A DNA stretch of 26,674 nt from NCBI GenBank assembly GCA_044359815.1, contig JBIKLL010000031.1, positions 1-26,674 of the forward strand, given 5' to 3'. The position numbers and the translations under genes are program-made. Under the pieces are notes generated by a model. The model searched no databases. It was not told the DNA's origin and saw only the letters and a program-made list of their open reading frames with translations. This DNA comes from Pseudobdellovibrionaceae bacterium. GTDB lineage: Bacteria; Bdellovibrionota; Bdellovibrionia; Bdellovibrionales; Bdellovibrionaceae. How positions within the stretch are numbered: position 1 is the first letter of the stretch; each line of letters opens with the position of its first letter. Below are positions 4,852 to 22,183 of this stretch, piece by piece.

Positions 4852-5853
4852 TTATAAAATAGCTCTTTTTGATGATTGAAATGCCAACTCTGATTTTTTC
4901 TGAATCTGCAAAGCAGTTGTCGGATGAAATCGCAGTGATTGATAGGATCCCTCGGCTCTGAGTGTATCAACAATGTATTGGTGTGTCCCCATTTTGTCAG
5001 AAGTCCATTCTGGAACGATCAGCTCATCCCAGCGACTGGAAAAAGCCGCCAGACGGTGTACAAAAATTTCCGGCGATAAGTGTTCTAAAAACAATTTCAC
5101 TCGGTGAGCATAGGTTGATCGGTCAATAGGATTGAATTCGCCTTGGTTCCAAATTTTTTCAAGTTCAGTGTTCTTTAAAACATGCAGATGGTGAAGTTTT
5201 ACGTGATCAATTCCCAGACTGTTACAGATATTGGCTGTTTCAATAATTTGCTGATCGGTTTCATTGGGAAGACCAAATATTAAATGAATACCTAAATCCA
5301 AATCAGAATGGGATTTGATATTTTTAATGGCTTTAAAAACGGCTGCGGCATCATGCCCCCGTTTTAAAAATTCCAATTGATCCTCAAAAAAACTCTGAAC
5401 ACCCAGCTCGATGCTGACAAAATGAGTTTCTGAATAAGATTTCCATAAATTTAAAACAGCTGGTGAAACGCAGTCAGGTCTGGTACCGACAACAAAGCCT
5501 AAAATATCTGAATCCTGCAAAACAGTTTTAAAATGTTCATCAAGGGTAGAGATTTTTAAAAAGCTATTGGTGTAAGCTTGAAAATAAGCCAAAAATTTTG
5601 TGGCGTTAAATCGCTTGCCTATATGAGCTTTGTATTTTTGAATTTGCTCAGTCAAAGGCATTTGTAAACTGTCTGACCTTGCAGCAGAGCCCCACTCATC
5701 GCAAAAAACACAGGTCTGCATGCCCTTTAAACCCATGCGGTTTGGGCAGGTGTCGACAATGGAAACCGGGATTTTATAAATCTTGGTGTTAAATTTATTC
5801 TTGTAAAATTGCGAAATCGGATTAAAAGGAAGTCCGTTCCAAGCTTTTTCCAT
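4852..5853 (-). CDS. TIGR01212-family (YhcC/YtqA-MnmL-like) radical SAM protein
   Basis: CPNRMGLKGMQTCVFC variant cysteine motif, YFQAYTN, GTRPDC, ELGVQS, RGH, HLIFGLP and VKLHHLHVLKNT. Confidence 0.92.
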   Translation of the reverse strand: MEKAWNGLPFNPISQFYKNKFNTKIYKIPVSIVDTCPNRMGLKGMQTCVFCDEWGSAARSDSLQMPLTEQIQKYKAHIGKRFNATKFLAYFQAYTNSFLKISTLDEHFKTVLQDSDILGFVVGTRPDCVSPAVLNLWKSYSETHFVSIELGVQSFFEDQLEFLKRGHDAAAVFKAIKNIKSHSDLDLGIHLIFGLPNETDQQIIETANICNSLGIDHVKLHHLHVLKNTELEKIWNQGEFNPIDRSTYAHRVKLFLEHLSPEIFVHRLAAFSSRWDELIVPEWTSDKMGTHQYIVDTLRAEGSYQSLRFHPTTALQIQKKSELAFQSSKRAIL

Positions 5854-5874
5854 GGGCGAAAATTAGGACGTAAA

Positions 5875-6630
5875 ATGACCCCTGTAAACCAAATTCAATC
5901 TGATTTTCATAATTATCTGATTAAACTGACGGCTGACGGAAGCCCGACGCTGCAAACGCAAGACAAAAACCAGGAATCCATGCACCATTCAGGGGGCGCG
6001 TACAGTGAAACCCAACTGATCTATGGACAAATGATTGCTGAGTGCCTCAGGCGGGGCGGACGTCGGTTTTTGATCACAGGCTTGGGGCTAGGGTACATAG
6101 AATGGACATTGATTGATCAGGTTTTCAAGGCCGCTGTGGATCCCAGTCAGGTTTTTTTGGTGTCAGTTGAAAACGACCCCATTTTAGTCAACAGTCAGAG
6201 AAATTTTATTTCAGGCAATTTAGATTCGGTGACATTAAAAACAGCCAGTCAGTTTTTTACAGATTTTTTAGAAATTCAGAAAATTTTAGAGCGAAAACTT
6301 ATGGATGGAAGCTGGCAGATTGTGACTGATTTAAATCAATTCAGCGAATCAGCCAGTAAAACATTGGCTGGTTTTTCTGAACAAAGGTTTCAGGGAATCT
6401 GTTATGATTTTTACAGCAGCAAGCAAGATCCTCATTTGTGGAGCGAGGATTTTTTAAAAAGTTTCTTGGCCCAGTTTGCAGATCCTAATGGTTGTTATTT
6501 TAGCACCTATGCCTGCACAGGGGCTTTAAAGCGCGCTCTGCTTCAGCAAAATTTCACCGTCATCAAAAAACCAGGGTTTTGCCAAAAGCGCGACTCCACC
6601 CTCGCTTATAATTATAAAAACTCCCTTTAA
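5875..6630 (+). CDS. Stand-alone MnmC-type (MnmD-like) SAM-dependent tRNA methyltransferase
   Basis: TADGSPTL, ESMHHSGGAYSET, TGLGLG, YDFYSSKQDPHLWS, STYA and PGFCQKR motifs. ATG 5875 is preferred because the TTG at 5809 would overlap the divergent gene. Confidence 0.8.
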   Translation: MTPVNQIQSDFHNYLIKLTADGSPTLQTQDKNQESMHHSGGAYSETQLIYGQMIAECLRRGGRRFLITGLGLGYIEWTLIDQVFKAAVDPSQVFLVSVENDPILVNSQRNFISGNLDSVTLKTASQFFTDFLEIQKILERKLMDGSWQIVTDLNQFSESASKTLAGFSEQRFQGICYDFYSSKQDPHLWSEDFLKSFLAQFADPNGCYFSTYACTGALKRALLQQNFTVIKKPGFCQKRDSTLAYNYKNSL

Positions 6631-6647
6631 GTGCAATCCGATAAATT

Positions 6648-6944
6648 TCAAAAGCGAAGGCTCTATCTAGACCTTTTCAATTTCATTTTTTGAAGCTTTC
6701 ATTCCAAGTAATTGGTTTTTGATAAAAAACATATTTCAAAGATCTAAAATAAATAATTAAATATATTGAGATGGGTTCTCCGCGGAGCCATGGATGGCGG
6801 GGACTTGGTCCGAGCGGCTGAGGCAGGAGGCCGTAACCCATATCAATGTATTTAGTTGTTTATTTTAGATCTTTAAAAAACTTAATGGTTTGGAATGAAA
6901 GCAAAATGACTCAATTGAAAGCTAGGGCGAGCCTTCGCTTTTGA
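6648..6944. repeat. ~300-bp imperfect inverted repeat with a 57-nt GC-rich core
   Basis: Paired blocks: 6648-6663/6929-6944 (16 bp perfect), 6695-6707/6890-6902 (13 bp perfect) and 6738-6777/6835-6874 (40 bp, 4 mismatches). Confidence 0.92.
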
Positions 6945-7626
6945 CGTCGGAAAATTTGCGAACATATTCGATGATGGCGCTTTTAGATTCTGATTGAAGG
7001 CCTGAAAATTTCAATCCAGCATAGCCATCCTGAGAAACATAAACGACTTCAACTGTTGCATGGATGGGTGCGAACAGATTGGGGCTTTTAAGAATGGTCT
7101 TAAAACGCTCGCCAATTTTTGCATTAATGGCTTCGGTGATTCCCAGACCGCCTTCAGATATTGAAAGCACGCGGGCAGTGAATTGCCCAGCGGCGCCTTC
7201 GCAAAGTAAAGTTCCCATAATAGGCACTCGGGGATGCTTTCTGCGGCTGACGCCTAATTCATCCATAATTTTATGAATCTGAAAAATCTCTTTCCATTCG
7301 GTATAACCCTCGGTCCAAATAAAAACATCCGACAGATCCTCGCGAGTTTTTAAATAGTCCATCATTTCAGGTTGTGACATGGGTTTCATTTCTTGCCCAG
7401 CGACACGGACTTTCCAAATGCGCTCGTTAGCTGTTTTTAATTTTTGATGAGCTTGCTCAACGTCTTGTGCTGATTTTTCAAAACGCTTTCCTGAAACCCA
7501 TTCGTTTTGACCACGGGTCCAAACCAGAGCGTTTTTATTGGCTAATAATTGAGCATTGACTTCTTCTTTTGAAAAAGGCCCAACCACCTTTTCGTCCAAA
7601 AATAAAAACCATTTGCGTTCGCTCAT
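6922..7626 (-). CDS. GYF_2/DUF4339-like tandem domains plus C-terminal PilZ domain (putative c-di-GMP receptor)
   Basis: Two W...[GK]P...[VI]WTxGxxEW units, followed by PilZ motifs RRKHPR and SISEGG. Confidence 0.85.
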   Translation of the reverse strand: MSERKWFLFLDEKVVGPFSKEEVNAQLLANKNALVWTRGQNEWVSGKRFEKSAQDVEQAHQKLKTANERIWKVRVAGQEMKPMSQPEMMDYLKTREDLSDVFIWTEGYTEWKEIFQIHKIMDELGVSRRKHPRVPIMGTLLCEGAAGQFTARVLSISEGGLGITEAINAKIGERFKTILKSPNLFAPIHATVEVVYVSQDGYAGLKFSGLQSESKSAIIEYVRKFSDVKSEGSP

Positions 7627-7666: not shown

Positions 7667-8218
7667 ATGAAATTTATAATCGCAGGTACAAATCGCAAGG
7701 GTTCAACCACACTTAAATTATCTCAATACATGCAGCAGGTATTTAAAAACTTGGGCGAGGATTTTGAAATCATCGATTTGGCTCAGATTCCATTGGCTGA
7801 TCTGACTGATGGTTCTTACAAGGCTTCAGAAAAGGTAAAACCCTTTATCAACAAGATGGCTCAATCCCAAGGCACCTATGTGGTAGTTCCAGAGTACAAT
7901 GGATCTTATCCAGGCGTTTTAAAATTATTTATTGATCACTGGAAATACCCGGATTCATTTGAACACAGGCCAGTGGCATTTTTGGGTTTAGGCGGGATGT
8001 TTGGTGGAATGAGACCGGTTGAGCACATTCAGCAGGTTTTTGGATACAGAAATGCTTTTATTTATCCAGATCGATTGTTTCTACAAAAGGTTGAAAAAGT
8101 TTTTAACGGTCAGGATATTACGGATCCGGTGATTAAGGATCTTTTAAACAAGCAAGCTTCTGGATTTTTAAAATTTTGCACGTCTTTGCAGGCGAAAAAT
8201 CTTATCCCGCAGCTTTAG
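7667..8218 (+). CDS. NADPH-dependent FMN reductase (flavodoxin-like)
   Basis: GTNRKGS and PEYNGSYPGVLKLFID motifs. ATG 7667 avoids overlap with the divergent PilZ gene. Confidence 0.92.
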   Translation: MKFIIAGTNRKGSTTLKLSQYMQQVFKNLGEDFEIIDLAQIPLADLTDGSYKASEKVKPFINKMAQSQGTYVVVPEYNGSYPGVLKLFIDHWKYPDSFEHRPVAFLGLGGMFGGMRPVEHIQQVFGYRNAFIYPDRLFLQKVEKVFNGQDITDPVIKDLLNKQASGFLKFCTSLQAKNLIPQL

Positions 8219-10343
8219 CTTCAAGCTTTGCTTTATATTCTGCAATTTTATCGTTCAGATAATTTTGAGCCTTGTATCTTTTTAGATCATGAATGGAATC
8301 TTTGCGAATGTGTAAATTGTTAACGCCTTTTTCTTTCAGACGGTCTTTTTGTGATTGATAAAAGGTGCCACCTTGAGCCGTGTATCTGACATATTTTTGA
8401 TTTTCTTCCATATACACATACATATCAAATTCCAGCGGAGTGTCTGTTTTGATTTCTTCAATATTTAATTTTGCCATATTTTCCTGAGCCGATTCCTCAA
8501 GCTTCACGTCAGTGTTGGCGGTTGGAAAAAACGCAATGGCAATTTCTTCTCCGTCATGAACGGATTTTCTTAAAAATTCGGCTTGCTGTACGGCCCATGG
8601 TTCAAAATCAACTTCCTTGATTTTGATGGCCATATTGTCAGTTTCGGAAATCTGCTCACCATTGGCTTTCAAAAATGAAAATAATCTTTTTTTAATTTGT
8701 TCCAGCAAGGTTCCATCGACTTTTCTGTTTTTACCCATAGCTGCGACCAGATAACCATTAAATCTGGTGGACTCAACGGTGATGCAAGCGACATTAGTGG
8801 CCTTTTCTACAGTTTGAACGACTTTGTTTTCATCAGTCAGTGCGACGGATTCATCCATTGCCTGTTGTGTGCCCTTGATAATCAAGGTGTCAGGCTTTGT
8901 GGGTTTGTTGTTGTTTTGAAATTTGTAAACCGGATCTTTTTTTACTTTTTTAGGGACATAGCCACTGTCCATGGTGGGTTTGGTTTTCTGTTTGCCATAA
9001 GGCCCCTTAGATTCCATTGTAGGATTGGTTTTTCCACTGCTTTTTGATCCAGATTGAGCATTGGGATCTATGCCTTGTCTTTGCTTTTCAGAATTTGAAT
9101 CCGATTGTGTTTTATCAGCCCCTTGCGTGCCACCATTGGGATTAGCATTTGGATTTTGATTAAAGGCCGCGCCAGCAGCTTTTCGCATCCGCTCAGACCA
9201 ATCTTCAAAAGATTCTCCGTCTTCAGGTCCTTGAGAGACGCTACCGTCAGCTGATGGTGTGATCTGCGAGCCATCAATGCTGCCATCTGGTTTCAAAGCT
9301 GAGGGAGGTATAAATCCTTGCCCTGATTGCTTGGCTCTGGCCATTTGTTGCTGGTAGGCTTGTTTCATTCTTTCGTTCCACTGAGCTTGAGATTCGCCAT
9401 TTTGTGGACCATTGGAAACACTTCCGTCAGCTGATGGTGTGATTTGTGAACCATCAATACTGCCATCAGATTTTACGGCTGATGGCGGAATGTATCCCAG
9501 GCCCTGCTGAGATCTTTGGTTTTGTTGAGCGTGCGCTTGGCGCATGCGGGCAGCCCATTGCTCTTTGCTTTCACCGTCATTAGGAGTTTGCGAAATCTTT
9601 CCGTCATCTGATGGAATAATTTGCGATCCATCTACCGATCCATCAGCATTGATAGCGCTGGAAGGTATGTATCCCAAGCCACCTTTTGATGCCTGTCCTT
9701 TTGCGACAATGGTGCCGCCTTGTTGAATCAGTGAACCGCCTTGGGTCATTGTGTTGTTTGAACCTGTGCTGTCGCTGTCTGAACTTAAAAAACTACTTAA
9801 GGCAGCTTTAGCTTGTTCTGAGCTAAAACTTCCTGTGACCTGTGTGTATCCGGGGCCTTTAATTGTGGGGCCAGAGGATCCGCCAGTAAATCCTTGAGGT
9901 GTGCTGGATTCAGCTCCGGATTCTAAATCTTTTTGAATTTTTCTGATAATCCTATCAATCGCAGGACCGCTGACGGGTGGGTACAAAGTGTATTTTAGCC
10001 CCATGTCGTGCAATACTTTAATTGTTTCGTTTGTTTGCTGTTCAGCAAAAGCAATTATTTTAACTGGAAAAGCTTGGGTTAACAATTTGGGAAGCATTCG
10101 TGTTTTTTTGTTTTTATGATCTGCGCTGATCATCAGAAACTGTGGCTGCTTAGTGATCAAATAGGTCAGCAGTTCTTTAAAGTTTGAACCGCTGGATACG
10201 TTCCAACCGCGGTTACGCAAAAAAGTTTCAGCGGGGACCATTACACCAGGTGCGCTTTTAAAAATGTAAAGCGAATACGACTCTTCTTTCACCGAGTCAT
10301 TCTCCTCATCTTTTACATCCAAATCTTTTGGATCTGCTGACAT
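8202..10343 (-). CDS. Large hypothetical protein: degenerate receiver-like N-terminus, three ~60-aa repeats in a low-complexity linker, globular C-terminus
   Basis: Long ORF. ATG 10343 has an AAAGGA SD upstream. Repeats are visible in the translation. Confidence 0.8.
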   Translation of the reverse strand: MSADPKDLDVKDEENDSVKEESYSLYIFKSAPGVMVPAETFLRNRGWNVSSGSNFKELLTYLITKQPQFLMISADHKNKKTRMLPKLLTQAFPVKIIAFAEQQTNETIKVLHDMGLKYTLYPPVSGPAIDRIIRKIQKDLESGAESSTPQGFTGGSSGPTIKGPGYTQVTGSFSSEQAKAALSSFLSSDSDSTGSNNTMTQGGSLIQQGGTIVAKGQASKGGLGYIPSSAINADGSVDGSQIIPSDDGKISQTPNDGESKEQWAARMRQAHAQQNQRSQQGLGYIPPSAVKSDGSIDGSQITPSADGSVSNGPQNGESQAQWNERMKQAYQQQMARAKQSGQGFIPPSALKPDGSIDGSQITPSADGSVSQGPEDGESFEDWSERMRKAAGAAFNQNPNANPNGGTQGADKTQSDSNSEKQRQGIDPNAQSGSKSSGKTNPTMESKGPYGKQKTKPTMDSGYVPKKVKKDPVYKFQNNNKPTKPDTLIIKGTQQAMDESVALTDENKVVQTVEKATNVACITVESTRFNGYLVAAMGKNRKVDGTLLEQIKKRLFSFLKANGEQISETDNMAIKIKEVDFEPWAVQQAEFLRKSVHDGEEIAIAFFPTANTDVKLEESAQENMAKLNIEEIKTDTPLEFDMYVYMEENQKYVRYTAQGGTFYQSQKDRLKEKGVNNLHIRKDSIHDLKRYKAQNYLNDKIAEYKAKLEAKAAG
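9170..9680 (-). repeat. Three intragenic tandem repeats (177-180 nt period)
   Basis: Units start at 9680, 9503 and 9323, consensus GxG[YF]IPxSA..DGS[VI]DGSQIxPSxDG..S..P..GES...W..RM. Confidence 0.9.
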
Positions 10344-10591
10344 CACTAAATTCCTTTTTCTCTGCATTCTATTCGGCAAAAACGGCCTGTCTTTTTAGCA
10401 ATTTAGCAAAAGCTTGGACCAAAGACTGATTTGTCAGTTTTTGAAGCGCAGGGTCCTGTATTAAAAGTGACATTGGTACTGGATAATATTAACCTTAAGC
10501 TGGACTTTTCACTGGCATTTTTAACTGACAAAAGATTTTAAACTGATGTTTTAAACAAAAAATATAAACCCATTTTTTAAAGAAGCACACC

Positions 10592-19091: not shown

Positions 19092-20024
19092 ATGAAAGCC
19101 ATTTTAACCATAGCAGCTTTGCTGGCAGCACAAAATTTGTATGCTCAAGGCTCAACAACTAAAGCGTCTGCAAAATCTGCAGCTAAAGCTCCAGCAGCAG
19201 GAACAACAACTGCGACTGCGACTGAAGCCGCTCCAGAAGCTACAAAAAAATTCGGTGTCAACTTGATTGCTGAAATAGCAAAGCAAATAAAAATGCTTGA
19301 TGATGGCAAAGAAGTTGAATCTCCGTATGTTACAGCAGGTGCTGCGGGTTTGACTTATAAAGCTACCAGCAAAGTGACTTTGGAAGCCCGTCACAATTTT
19401 GCTTACACTAGCGAAAGAACTTATGCAGGGAACGTAATTCCTGGTCAGTTTTATGGCGACAATTACGAAGCTATGGATTTTATGTTAAGAGCTAAGGTTG
19501 CTACTGATGCAACTTTGTTTGGATCTTCAAAAATCAATCCTGATTTTAGAGCCTATTTACCAACCAGCAGAAGAACTAGGGATGCAAAACAGAATGTTTA
19601 TTTGCGAAATGATTTGGCTCCTGAATGGACGATCAATCCAAAACTTACTTACTCCACATTGCTTTCAACAAGACTTTATCTGAATTCTGGATCTTCAAAA
19701 ATTGGTTCAGATTCTTTGTTGAGACTGGTAGTAACTCCGGTTGGATTGTCTTATGCATTCAATGATAAATTGAGCGCTTATTACACTTACACAATGGATT
19801 TAAGATCAGTTAACTATCAACGTGGAATTTTGTCTGCTGAAGCTGCAAATGCGGCAACTCACGAAACTGGTATGAACATCAGCGTGGGTGCATTGACTAT
19901 CAATCCAGCAATCACTTCTGACGTTAACCAGGGTGATGGATCAGCTTCAGTTTTAACTGCTGATTCAAGAGTGTATTCAGCTGATACAAGCTCATACAAC
20001 TTGAACCTGTACGCTAGCTTCTAA
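19092..20024 (+). CDS. Secreted, probable outer-membrane beta-barrel protein
   Basis: Signal peptide, Ala/Thr-rich linker, alternating amphipathic strands and C-terminal beta-signal YNLNLYASF; has its own terminator. Confidence 0.75.
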   Translation: MKAILTIAALLAAQNLYAQGSTTKASAKSAAKAPAAGTTTATATEAAPEATKKFGVNLIAEIAKQIKMLDDGKEVESPYVTAGAAGLTYKATSKVTLEARHNFAYTSERTYAGNVIPGQFYGDNYEAMDFMLRAKVATDATLFGSSKINPDFRAYLPTSRRTRDAKQNVYLRNDLAPEWTINPKLTYSTLLSTRLYLNSGSSKIGSDSLLRLVVTPVGLSYAFNDKLSAYYTYTMDLRSVNYQRGILSAEAANAATHETGMNISVGALTINPAITSDVNQGDGSASVLTADSRVYSADTSSYNLNLYASF

Positions 20025-20086: not shown

Positions 20087-20224
20087 TCGGCTCAAATTAG
20101 TATTAATCTTCAACAGGGCAGAACAACGTCCTGTATGCGTTTTGGGGCCCTAAATGCTAGTCATTGGGCCATTCACTTTTTCTTTCGATTAAACGATCAG
20201 AATACATCGAAAGGAAACGCCATT

Positions 20225-20971
20225 ATGAAAACCTTGATTTTAATAGCCCTAATTGGGTTTGTGTTTGCAGCCAGAGCCAATGACAAAATAGTCGGAGGAG
20301 TAGAAGCCGCTGAGGGCGAGTTTCCTTTTATGGTTTCTTTGCAATATGACGGGCATTTTTGCGGGGGTTCTTTAGTAGGATCCCATTGGGTTTTGACGGC
20401 TGCACACTGTGCGGGCTCGGTTCAAGGGCTTTCGGTGTTTATGGGTAGCAACCGTTTGGATAGCGACAAGGCCACTAAGCTGTCAGTTTCTAAAATAATC
20501 GTGCACCCAAAATTTGATTCAAACAAATTAGATTTTGATTTCGCTTTGGTCAGACTATCAGAAGACGTTAGTTTTCAACCTGTGAGTTTAAATGAAACTG
20601 AGATGGAAGTCCCAAATGATCTGTCAAAATCAGTGACTACGGCTGGTTGGGGGCTGACTCAGGAAAACGGATTTGATTTGCCGGTGCAGTTAATGAAGGT
20701 CGATGTCCCATTGATCACAAAATCTGCCTGCGAGGATTCTTACAAAGGCATGATCACTGATCAAATGATCTGCGCTGGCTTGCCAGAGGGTGGTAAAGAT
20801 TCTTGCCAAGGCGACAGCGGGGGACCTTTGTTTGCAAAAGACTCTGAAGGCCAATTTAAATTGATTGGCGTTGTATCGTGGGGGATTGGCTGCGCCAGAC
20901 CCGATAAGTACGGAGTCTATTCCAAGGTCAACTCAGTCATCAATTGGATCAAAGCCGAAACAGCAAAATAA
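20225..20971 (+). CDS. Secreted trypsin-like (S1A) serine protease
   Basis: Signal peptide MKTLILIALIG, IVGG, TAAHC, DFAL and DSCQGDSGGP (Asp in the S1 pocket); SD aaagga before ATG 20225. Confidence 0.95.
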   Translation: MKTLILIALIGFVFAARANDKIVGGVEAAEGEFPFMVSLQYDGHFCGGSLVGSHWVLTAAHCAGSVQGLSVFMGSNRLDSDKATKLSVSKIIVHPKFDSNKLDFDFALVRLSEDVSFQPVSLNETEMEVPNDLSKSVTTAGWGLTQENGFDLPVQLMKVDVPLITKSACEDSYKGMITDQMICAGLPEGGKDSCQGDSGGPLFAKDSEGQFKLIGVVSWGIGCARPDKYGVYSKVNSVINWIKAETAK

Positions 20972-20988
20972 TCTGTCCCATTTTTGTT

Positions 20989-21547
20989 TTTTTAGTTTTT
21001 TGAATTTAGGGATTTTAGATATAAAAATATATTCCTAAATTCCCTACCTTGTGAATACATTTGCGAGCGCGCATGGCATATCTGGTGTTGAGTCATAATT
21101 TAGAATTTGTTCTTAAATCTGAACTTGTTTTGTTTTCTAAAAACCTGTCGTTTGTATTTAGCAAAAAATATTATTTTTTCTTCATTTTGTGAATACTTGC
21201 TAACGGCCGCAAGCTCATCTCTCGTATTGAGTCATGCAGCTGTTGATTTTTTCAAATAATATTAAATAAATTTTCAATCTCTTGTCTTAAAAATCAATAG
21301 CCGCATGACTCAACACCAGATATGCCATGCGCGCTCGCAAATGTATTCACAAAACACAGAAAACAAGAATATTTTTTGCTAAATACAAACGACAGGTTTC
21401 AGGAACTAAACTAATTAAGTTTTATGAACTTTTAAATTATGAATCAATACGAGAGATGAGCTTGCGGCCGTTAGCAAGTATTCAAAAGGTAGGGAATTTA
21501 GGAATATATTTTTATATCTAAAATCCCTAAATTCAAAAAACTAAAAA
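20989..21547. repeat. ~560-bp foldback element with four fixed-end units (A>, B>, <A, <B)
   Basis: Perfect arms 20989-21050/21486-21547 (62 bp) and 21141-21172/21368-21399 (32 bp). Inner stem 21227-21251/21289-21313 (23/25). Units read TGAATAC-core-TTGA(G/T)TCAT. Confidence 0.96.
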
Positions 21548-21556
21548 TGCGAAAGA

Positions 21557-22183
21557 TTATTTTTTGTTGGCGAGGCTTTGCATGATCTGTTCGCCGCCCG
21601 GCAGGTACGGGAGGGGATCGATGGGGAGGCGCTGCCTTCTGATTTCAAAGTGCAGATGCACGCCAGTGGCCCGGCCAGTTCTGCCCATTTTGCCAATCAT
21701 CTGTCCCTGTTCGACCACGTCGCCTTCATTGACCAAAATCTCGGACAGATGGGCATACAGTGTGGCCCATCCTCCTTCCCCTTCAATGACTATCAATTTT
21801 CCAAATCCTTTAAAGGCTTTGCCTGTATAGACTATTCTTCCGTTATGCGAGGCAAAGATTCGGGTGCCTTTGTTAGCTGCTAAATCTAATCCCAAATGGG
21901 GCCTGCGTTTTTTTTTGTTAAAACCACGGGTCAGTCTGGCTAAATCAACAGGCCAATCAAAATAGCTTTTGTTCTGGTTTTTGAATTTTTCGACGGCTTC
22001 GTCTTCAGCTAAAAATGAAGAGCCCGTGTCAGTTGCAGGTGATTCCTCGTCGATTTCCAATTCATCAGCTGGTGCCCAAGATTGGTAATCGTTCTCGTTG
22101 GCAGGCTTTCTGACAGGTTCGGTGTGCGAACAACCTGTTATCAAAATAACTAAAGCTAAAATTAATGAAAAACTCTGATTCAT
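21557..22183 (-). CDS. M23-family (NlpD-like) peptidoglycan endopeptidase lipoprotein
   Basis: Lipobox ITGC, zinc motifs HLGLD and HLH, and YAHL. Confidence 0.92.
   Translation of the reverse strand: MNQSFSLILALVILITGCSHTEPVRKPANENDYQSWAPADELEIDEESPATDTGSSFLAEDEAVEKFKNQNKSYFDWPVDLARLTRGFNKKKRRPHLGLDLAANKGTRIFASHNGRIVYTGKAFKGFGKLIVIEGEGGWATLYAHLSEILVNEGDVVEQGQMIGKMGRTGRATGVHLHFEIRRQRLPIDPLPYLPGGEQIMQSLANKK

Follow-up and report, generated by a model that had tools for sequence, protein, structure and literature searches.

A self-nested palindromic repeat with two cassette types between convergent genes of a Pseudobdellovibrionaceae bacterium: probably one copy of a lineage-specific mosaic family

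The element between two convergent protease genes

The 26,674-nt stretch of DNA analysed here (contig JBIKLL010000031.1 of assembly GCA_044359815.1, from a Pseudobdellovibrionaceae bacterium; hereafter the window) carries two convergent genes, one for a trypsin-like serine protease at 20135-20971 (+ strand; Pfam Trypsin PF00089, E 9.5e-65) and one for an M23 peptidase at 21557-22183 (- strand; Pfam Peptidase_M23 PF01551, E 1.7e-32), and the entire 586-nt gap between the two open reading frames (ORFs) is occupied by a single palindromic element. The element contains two kinds of short sequence, which we call cassettes A (45 nt) and B (46 nt), each present once in either orientation and set among complementary arms, and its complete order is O A X B | A' X' B' O', where O and X are arms and a prime marks the inverted partner. 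A plausible scenario, and the one we favor as probably correct, is that we have here one 'long-form' copy from a family of self-nested, heterotypic, palindromic mosaic repeats that is lineage-specific and non-coding, similar to REPINs (hairpins formed by pairs of repetitive extragenic palindromic, or REP, sequences) and to bacterial interspersed mosaic elements (BIMEs). The kind of structure is ordinary and its layout unusual, and neither a one-off giant hairpin nor a viroid-like RNA describes it.

Both plus-strand units are bounded by the same fixed ends, TGAATAC and TTGAGTCAT. The core of A at 21059-21087 is the reverse complement of 21314-21342 and lies within a unit (21049-21096) that is the exact 48-nt reverse complement of 21305-21352, with the match ending on both sides there. 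The core of B at 21197-21226 is likewise the reverse complement of 21448-21477, with an exact inverted match of 41 nt between 21190-21230 and 21444-21484; the 49-nt arms that contain it (21187-21235 and 21439-21487; inverted repeat I3) differ at 2 positions, i.e. they are 96% complementary. The repeat finder returned two further pairs of arms, an outer pair of 77 nt (20982-21058 with 21478-21554; I2) and an inner pair of 39 nt (21141-21179 with 21361-21399; I4), each 95% complementary.

Read from the left, the element opens with the AT-rich outer arm O (20982-21051), which has a locus-specific sequence and is of the family's arm type, since it aligns with the arms of other copies. The outer copy of cassette A follows (21052-21096, + strand; the exact reverse complement of 21305-21349), and then linker s (21097-21140), which appears to be the left half of the opened apex of an outer element; it pairs in part with 21400-21438 in the predicted rod and aligns with the long copies of the family on contigs C20, C83 and C106. 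Arm X (21141-21189) is of the O type, aligns with the arms of free-standing A...B' pairs, and would be the outer arm of a nested inner element. The inner copy of cassette B (21190-21235, + strand) has the fixed ends of A and a different core. The apex hairpin of the inner element lies at 21236-21304 (I5; 21216-21251 with 21289-21324, 86% complementary) and is followed by the inner A' (21305-21349, - strand), which lies opposite the inner B in the rod, by arm X' (21350-21399), the partner of X, by linker s' (21400-21438), which would be the right half of the opened apex, by the outer B' (21439-21484, - strand), which lies opposite the outer A, and by the outer arm O' (21485-21554).

Complementarity does not stop at the arms. 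When the left flank is aligned locally, with gaps, to the reverse complement of the right flank, the palindrome extends to 20950-21580, so that it enters the left ORF by 22 nt and the right ORF by 24 nt, and both TAA stop codons lie in complementary stretches. The outermost extension is weaker; its left part (20950-20981) takes in the last codons and the stop of the serine protease gene and pairs with its right part (21555-21580), which covers the stop of the M23 peptidase gene.

The 586-nt gap is predicted to fold as a single rod in which A faces B' and B faces A'. As DNA the predicted free energy is -173.7 kcal/mol, compared with -53.1 +/- 5.1 for 100 shuffled sequences (z -23.6), and as RNA it is -266.2 kcal/mol, compared with -107.8 +/- 6.5 (100 shuffles; z -24.3); the predicted rod is therefore far beyond chance. 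No Rfam family matched anywhere in the window at gathering score, and a permissive scan of 20800-21800 returned solely sub-threshold matches to models of plant and animal microRNA hairpins. A tRNA scan found none, and no intrinsic-terminator-like site was found in 20800-21750. Outward-facing promoter-like hexamers (TTCACA from a cassette end plus an AT-rich -10) number 5, compared with 2.3 +/- 1.4 in shuffled sequences, and we do not rely on this.

A repeat family at 92 loci

A BLAST search of the source genome with both units gave 248 cassette matches (115 to A and 133 to B), which group into 92 loci. All cassette and arm matches fall within elements of at most 631 nt. The order seen in the window, A+B+A-B- or its reverse complement (hereafter a quartet), is present at 27 of the 92 loci, 25 of them away from contig ends, and a plain A+B- doublet is present at 14; the other loci mostly run into a contig end or have a cassette that falls under the detection threshold. 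Nowhere in this census did we see tandem pairs (A+B-A+B-) or the product expected from inversion between A and A' (A+B-A-B-). Among loci with two cassettes, 14 pair A with B' and one pairs B with B', and the cassette pair is therefore heterotypic as a rule.

The basic unit of the family is about 250-290 nt long and consists of an AT-rich arm, cassette A, a small apex hairpin, an inverted cassette B and a complementary arm. The apex modules are of two types (31 and 53 nt), and roughly one third of the copies (e.g. C14:23860, C49:51707 and C110:632) carry a 13-nt AT-rich insertion at the tip of a small hairpin inside cassette A. The 25 internal quartets can be aligned over cassettes and arms, with homology reaching 50-75 nt past the cassettes; their arms are AT-rich and end in a more G+C-rich outer segment. 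Four quartets are of the long form (the window copy, C20:30374, C83:699 and C106:57264), in which the inner pair has full-length cassettes and outer-type arms of its own. In the compact form, which is commoner, the outer cassettes are without their inner end and the inner cassettes without their outer end.

Given that the inner part of the window copy (21125-21415, reverse strand) aligns end to end, arms included, with 10 free doublets, the A B A' B' order is best read as a heterotypic hairpin element lying upside down within the apex of a second one. Alignment of the long forms continues across the junction, which points to a single nesting event as the probable origin of all four, and the compact form may be a deletion derivative that then spread. 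The exactness of the A/A' and B/B' matches in the window is not a property of the locus, since the cassettes are near-identical throughout the family. We also looked for 'empty' arm palindromes lacking cassettes; the four candidates were a truncated copy, a copy with the 13-nt variant, a copy with a different repeat core and a diverged A-like array on C56, and none of them supports insertion of cassettes into pre-existing arms.

The arms and the cassettes have evolved in different ways. Over 39 loci the 50-nt arms adjoining the cassettes are 94.9% complementary within a copy and 78% identical between copies, whichever arms are compared, and cassette B is 96.7% identical among 39 copies. RNAalifold predicted 107 pairs on the alignment of doublets, of which 54 have changed on both sides with pairing kept. 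Paired cells make up 95.6% of the total, compared with 84.1 +/- 0.6 after shuffling, and none of 500 shuffles reached the observed value for any of five measures. Related sequences may beat shuffled ones without any structure, so that the safer comparison is with the same structures slid by 1-3 columns; these controls are also far lower, with 13-29 compensated pairs and about 40% pairing.

The pairing of A with B' also covaries. A change from AT to GG in A is accompanied by a change from TT to CC in B' in 3 of 3 doublets and the other 8 of 8 keep AT and TT, while one position within the shared TTGAGTCAT end is split into five A-U, five U-A and one C-G. The A:B' duplex is fixed and imperfect, with defined bulges; its ends are common to A and B and its cores differ. 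Four of its pairs are G.U (G.T) without exception and correspond to A.C mismatches on the opposite strand, and the A..B' strand is predicted to be the more stable one in 10 of 10 doublets (mean -154.0 versus -141.1 kcal/mol as RNA and -100.5 versus -91.4 as DNA), a result that reflects one inherited cassette pair and not ten independent tests. As the A..B' strand folds better, each strand of a quartet would carry one strong site. In the arms of the A..B' strand, 27 G.T mismatches stand against 29 A.C, which gives no sign of selection on one RNA strand there.

These results bear out what a sequence-only reading of the window, made before the comparison with other copies, had proposed about structure. 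Its coordinates for the cassettes and their exact inverted matches were all confirmed by sequence comparison. It had described an asymmetric A...B' doublet that encloses another copy of itself in reverse orientation, and free doublets at 14 loci, quartets at 27 and the full-length alignment of the inner part are what such a history should leave. It had also anticipated many intergenic doublets with variable arms, as we found, and one A:B' site on each strand, which is in keeping with the four invariant wobble pairs and the 10 of 10 doublets in which the A..B' strand folds better.

Copies of the family are placed in a consistent way with respect to genes. None of the 54 internal loci lies inside an ORF of at least 100 amino acids (aa); the neighbouring genes are convergent at 35, tandem at 13 and divergent at 3, and 3 loci could not be classified. 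The convergent share (35/51) is a roughly four-fold excess over the 16.9% of 2451 gene junctions that are convergent in a crude whole-genome ORF model (binomial p ~4e-16), and the family occupies at least 35 of about 414 convergent junctions in the genome. At 52 loci, 82 of the 100 neighbouring gene ends are 3' ends, with a median of 8.5 nt from the stop codon to the edge of the palindrome, and the palindrome includes the stop codon at 26 of these 82. For the 18 neighbouring 5' ends, the median distance to the palindrome is 141.5 nt. There is no bias of orientation relative to the genes (6 versus 5 at tandem and 13 versus 14 at convergent junctions). By eye, B and B' contain GCTAAC and GTTAGC, which are near, and not equal to, the consensus of integron attC boxes (RYYYAAC ... 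GTTRRRY). Unlike the members of an integron cassette array, the 92 loci are dispersed and follow stop codons.

The cassettes are confined to a narrow lineage in the collections that we searched. There was no match to them in 40 relatives from other genera, none by blastn in plasmid and phage collections, and none in 181 other genomes of the same bacterial family, where solely weak matches to the AT-rich apex were returned (E 3.5e-4 or worse). A search of a collection of species-representative genomes for the fixed-end pattern gave two matches (Bacillus and a metagenome-assembled genome of Methanosarcinales), which we take as noise, as about nine are estimated by chance. One metagenome assembly did contain the B core, on nine short contigs from a sister organism (88-96% identity to the source genome), and each of the nine maps to an element-bearing locus in the source genome or to a contig end adjoining one.

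Comparison of the two organisms is informative about how copies change in place. At the window's own locus (L025 in the sister) cassette B' and arm O' are kept and are about 96% identical, the same as the neighbouring gene, and the interior is of the compact form. At C110/L019 the arms and flanks are near-identical, and the sister has a quartet (B A B' A') where the source genome has a reduced A-B' doublet with the 13-nt A variant. At C49/L027 the sister's interior is the reverse complement of that in the source genome, and a variant in the cassette-adjacent arm has moved along with it. Orientation is kept in four further orthologous pairs, in which the apex hairpin module or the 13-nt A variant differs, and in L023/C73, where the source genome has a deletion or is truncated by a contig end; the 13-nt insertion is present in C87 and absent from its sister L021. 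Overall, the interior is flipped at 2 of 8 informative orthologous pairs, and apex modules, the 13-nt variant and long or compact linkers are combined differently from copy to copy, even at orthologous loci. Because the apex stems differ far beyond the roughly 5% divergence of the flanks, we infer that modules have been exchanged between copies. The identical cassettes may have served as homology anchors for this exchange and the interior may have inverted by recombination within the complementary arms, such that recombination, and not repeated insertion, would account for the swaps and flips.

A second repeat, which we call family C, was encountered in the course of this work. It has AT-rich complementary arms around an asymmetric, G+C-rich core of about 55 nt, and its window copy (6740-6880) lies between convergent ORFs at 5809-6630 (+) and 6922-7626 (-). 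The core has about 65 BLAST matches genome-wide and no Rfam match at gathering score. At C104:16887-17060 a family C core lies between arms of the A/B type, in the place usually taken by the A..B' interior. The arm framework can therefore hold another interior, either by insertion of one repeat into the other or by replacement. Elsewhere in the window, the ORFs at 8202-10379 (-; 725 aa) and 19092-20024 (+; 310 aa) have no Pfam family at E <= 0.001.

Mode of spread and alternative explanations

We think it likely that we are dealing with selfish or mobile DNA of the kind seen in REPINs and BIMEs, persisting in the form of a hairpin. Our working model is as follows: (i) the basic hairpin element, an arm, A, an apex hairpin, inverted B and a complementary arm, would fold better on one strand; (ii) one such element would have inserted, inverted, in the apex of another, giving A B A' B'; (iii) the nested form, mostly in its shortened, compact version, would itself have spread through the genome; (iv) copies lie directly after stop codons, mainly between convergent genes, at sites that are kept in the sister organism; (v) the near-identical cassettes would act as homology anchors through which apex and linker modules are exchanged between copies; and (vi) the interior would invert between the complementary arms. 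By analogy with known systems, the element may spread as a single-stranded DNA (ssDNA) hairpin recognised in trans by an HUH/Y1 enzyme resembling the REP-associated tyrosine transposases (RAYTs); we regard this part of the model as tentative and as having clearly less than an even chance of being right.

In searching for such an enzyme we found nine matches to PF01797 (Y1_Tnp) in the genome and, through a protein query, two more distant Y1/HUH genes (two distant Y1-like copies lie at C116:57224-57682 and C123:18427-18873). One gene, C8:9501-10160 (locus L001), is RAYT-like and scores 72.5 bits against NCBIfam REP_Tyr_transpos, under the cut-off of 80. Eight Y1-like paralogs of about 205 aa, with an HUH-like motif, weak PF01797 matches and 80-85% DNA identity, are found on C23, C47, C48, C49, C56, C100, C125 and at C8:23385-23984 (e.g. 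locus L003). Their homology consists of the ORF and about 90 nt upstream, which are conserved and promoter-like, and neither a hairpin nor recognisable element ends are visible in their flanks. Two of them have long microsatellites directly upstream, a TGAT/TGGT-type tract of about 200 nt (C125) and an array of 8-nt units (C23). The sole Y1 gene with cassette-like sequence in its neighbourhood is the paralog on C56, where a tandem array of three diverged A'-like units (period about 77 nt) and, after it, a family arm (C56:2300-2630, locus L047) lie roughly 340 nt upstream of it; with 92 loci in 2.95 Mb, the probability that one such neighbour arises at random is estimated at roughly 0.4.

Signs of movement were also sought at the copies themselves. 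Direct repeats of 4-8 nt at the edges of 52 loci were not above a mismatched-locus control (at k = 6, 3/52 versus 3.2 +/- 1.7); the absence of a target duplication of at least 4 nt fits HUH-type movement and proves nothing. There is no longer copy with a transposase between the cassettes or arms in the assembly, and the genes between closely spaced copies are, by eye, not transposases, PF01797 being the transposase family for which we searched.

Several observations weigh against the interpretation that we favor. With regard to the enzyme, no RAYT gene flanked by A/B cassettes was found in the 91%-complete assembly; another short repeat (about 26 nt, some 36-39 copies genome-wide) brackets the RAYT-like gene on C8 on either side in inverted orientation, and the two together look like a separate, classic REP-RAYT system. 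None of the eight Y1-like paralogs has a canonical A/B cassette within 700 nt, and of 182 genomes of the bacterial family, 124 have relatives of the eight-copy family (as many as 20 matches in a genome), compared with one that has the cassettes; there is therefore no specific co-occurrence. As the genome is 91% complete and breaks at A/B repeats, an associated gene may be unassembled. With regard to the element, the GTAG/CGTC tag of most REPs is absent, GTAG, CTAC, CGTC and GACG each occurring 0 times on either strand of cassettes A and B, and the element's ends are fuzzy and fade gradually, the conserved parts being the subterminal cassettes. No presence/absence polymorphism was seen among the nine sister contigs, which, having been retrieved by their B core, could not show empty sites. 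The swaps and flips rest on short-read metagenome assemblies, and an assembler could mis-orient C110/L019, where the arms form perfect inverted repeats longer than 50 nt. Finally, high cassette identity together with old, diverged arms could also reflect a function for the host.

Alternatively, the element could act as RNA. It could be a 3' untranslated region (3'-UTR) structure of the converging transcripts, acting as a stabiliser, as a processing or protein-binding site or as a bidirectional terminator, with A:B' as the recognised motif and the nesting serving to put this motif on both transcripts. The preference for 3' gene ends and convergent junctions, the short distance from stop codons, the strong covariation, the invariant G.U pairs in A:B' and the greater RNA stability of the A..B' strand are all compatible with this idea. 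Furthermore, a relative's metatranscriptome contig extends out of the protease gene to 21016, within arm O, which is not evidence of transcription in the source organism, and a 2026 preprint, as far as its description of E. coli REPs goes, presents these as dual 3'-UTR regulators. We nevertheless consider a role as RNA unlikely to be the explanation: the arms have no wobble bias, copies show no preferred orientation with respect to the upstream gene, two of the eight orthologous loci have a flipped interior, there is no terminator-like site in the region scanned and no Rfam family, the cassettes are absent from the 181 related genomes, and the unanimity of the stability comparison goes back to a single inherited cassette pair.

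It is also conceivable, and in our view improbable, that the family is an ordinary MITE (miniature inverted-repeat transposable element) derived from an insertion sequence with a DDE transposase, moving as double-stranded DNA via terminal inverted repeats, and that one copy has inserted into another. The whole element is a long inverted repeat, the copy number is high, ORFs of at least 100 aa are avoided without exception at the internal loci, and nesting is common among MITEs. Such an origin is difficult to reconcile with edges that show no direct repeats above control (in a test that covers duplications of at least 4 nt), with the conservation of subterminal cassettes instead of the ends, which fade, and with the lack in the assembly of any longer, transposase-bearing copy between cassettes or arms.

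A more ambitious idea, to which we give about as little weight, is that the nested quartet is a selected design, in which A:B' would fold well on one strand only and be the strand-specific site that an RNA-binding factor or a domesticated system of the HUH/Y1 type recognises. If this were true, inverted nesting would leave each DNA strand, or each of the converging transcripts, with precisely one good site regardless of the element's orientation, and this would account for quartets out-competing doublets, for free flipping of the interior and for near-invariant cassettes with drifting arms. The partner, in that case, would be the Y1-like gene family that is expanded across the bacterial family.

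The exact 48-nt and 41-nt inverted repeats, and the two interiors that differ in orientation between the sister organisms, might suggest a programmed invertible switch in which A/A' and B/B' are the crossover sites of a site-specific recombinase that flips overlapping segments. This is very improbable: none of the 92 loci has an order expected from A x A' or B x B' inversion (e.g. A+B-A-B-), the flips that we saw turn the whole interior between the outer arms (once with cassette-adjacent arm variants), the exactness of A/A' follows from cassette identity throughout the family, the flanking genes encode proteases and not recombinases, and the 92 sites follow stop codons and have no obvious target to regulate.

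Least probable of all is an assembly artefact, in which identical cassettes led the assembler to join parts of different copies and so to create the A B A' B' order falsely; although the source genome (2.95 Mb in 125 contigs) is often broken at A/B repeats, the same order recurs at 27 loci, each having its own locus-specific arms, and is found in the separate metagenome assembly of the sister organism (L019 and, partially, L024, L025 and L027). For the window copy, Logan contigs from two or three independent runs on lake-water metagenomes match both flanks and three junctions exactly: O to A (20989-21074), A through the linker to X (21067-21172) and B through the apex to A' (21206-21334). Among the Logan pieces listed, none spans the whole element, and the junctions X to B, A' to X', X' to B' and B' to O' are not covered; these contigs break at cassettes, and gaps in their cover show nothing either way.

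The functional proposals of the sequence-only reading fared less well than its structural ones. It had suggested an ssDNA substrate for an HUH/RAYT-like transposase, and since none of the Y1/HUH genes that we located is flanked by cassettes, and the RAYT-like gene has another repeat, that link stays an analogy. A structured RNA active in both polarities finds nothing in Rfam to correspond to it and is at odds with the lack of wobble bias in the arms and with random orientation, and a self-cleaving RNA is without support. Overlapping inversions by a dedicated recombinase would have left A x A' or B x B' products, of which the family has no member. The candidate 'giant structured RNA or ribozyme' is thus replaced by a repeat family, one that causes many of the contig breaks in this assembly.

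Comparison with known systems

Bacterial MITEs such as Correia/NEMIS, ERIC and RUP are characterised by terminal inverted repeats that are conserved, by duplication of the target site and by the existence of a related insertion sequence. The A/B family is like them in being small, non-coding, intergenic, palindromic, often located at gene ends and sometimes nested. It differs from them in that its ends are its least conserved parts, no duplication of at least 4 nt accompanies it and no parent element was found in the assembly.

A second point of reference is the IS200/IS605 group with its hairpin-only derivatives (in outline, PMC6006769). Its imperfect subterminal hairpins are read on one strand of ssDNA by a Y1 HUH enzyme. 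Imperfect hairpins, the lack of a target duplication and the presence of Y1-type genes in the genome are shared features. However, the Y1-like paralogs here are without visible hairpin ends, and their distribution does not track that of the cassettes.

There is closer precedent in the BIMEs of E. coli, which, in the account of their organization given by Ton-Hoang et al. (2012; PMC3333891), consist of heterotypic pairs of y with z1 or z2 REPs in inverse orientation, with variable linkers and chimeric 'atypical' forms. The same source, where it deals with binding, reports that E. coli REPs are bound exclusively as single-stranded DNA, that a mismatch in the stem is needed and that inverted units provide one REP per strand. 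The A/B family likewise has heterotypic inverse pairs, one recognisable unit per strand and a defined mismatch in the stem; its linkers are reshuffled into chimeras, and the structure of the copy at a given locus varies between sister organisms as it does between strains in the BIME case. In contrast, BIME-2 elements, as they are described there, are tandem (y z' y z'), whereas the A/B family has the nested order A B A' B' at 27 loci; REPs are 20-40 nt long and GTAG-tagged, whereas the A and B cassettes are 45-46 nt long and untagged; and the E. coli enzyme gene lies within a REP cluster (the 'REPtron'), whereas none was found beside A/B cassettes.

The parallel with REPINs is of a similar kind. 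Bertels and Rainey (2011; PMC3116915), in the part of their study that defines these elements, describe conserved ends, a variable spacer with compensatory change and higher-order clusters. Here too, two conserved inverted blocks form a long hairpin, the less conserved surroundings change in a compensatory way, and there are tens to hundreds of extragenic copies, which are lineage-restricted, appear long-lived and are without target duplication. The differences are that the A and B blocks are heterotypic and about 45 nt long, that complementary arms of 50-75 nt lie outside the blocks, and that the commonest form here is a doublet nested, inverted, in another doublet, whereas the clusters of REPINs are described in that account as non-nested. 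With regard to the enzyme, RAYT groups are themselves reported to vary in copy number and in their association with REPs (PMC5581495, in the part that concerns these properties).

Taken together, the A/B family works like a REPIN or BIME and is not filed as a member of either, because two of their defining features were looked for and not found. It offers a clear case, found in nature, of heterotypic cassette pairs beyond the enterobacteria and of a self-nested hairpin that has spread as a unit, and equally of conserved cassettes that anchor module exchange and in-place inversion as we interpret them here. If an HUH enzyme were shown to read A:B', the principle of REPs and RAYTs would be extended to untagged, 45-nt cassettes in predatory bacteria.

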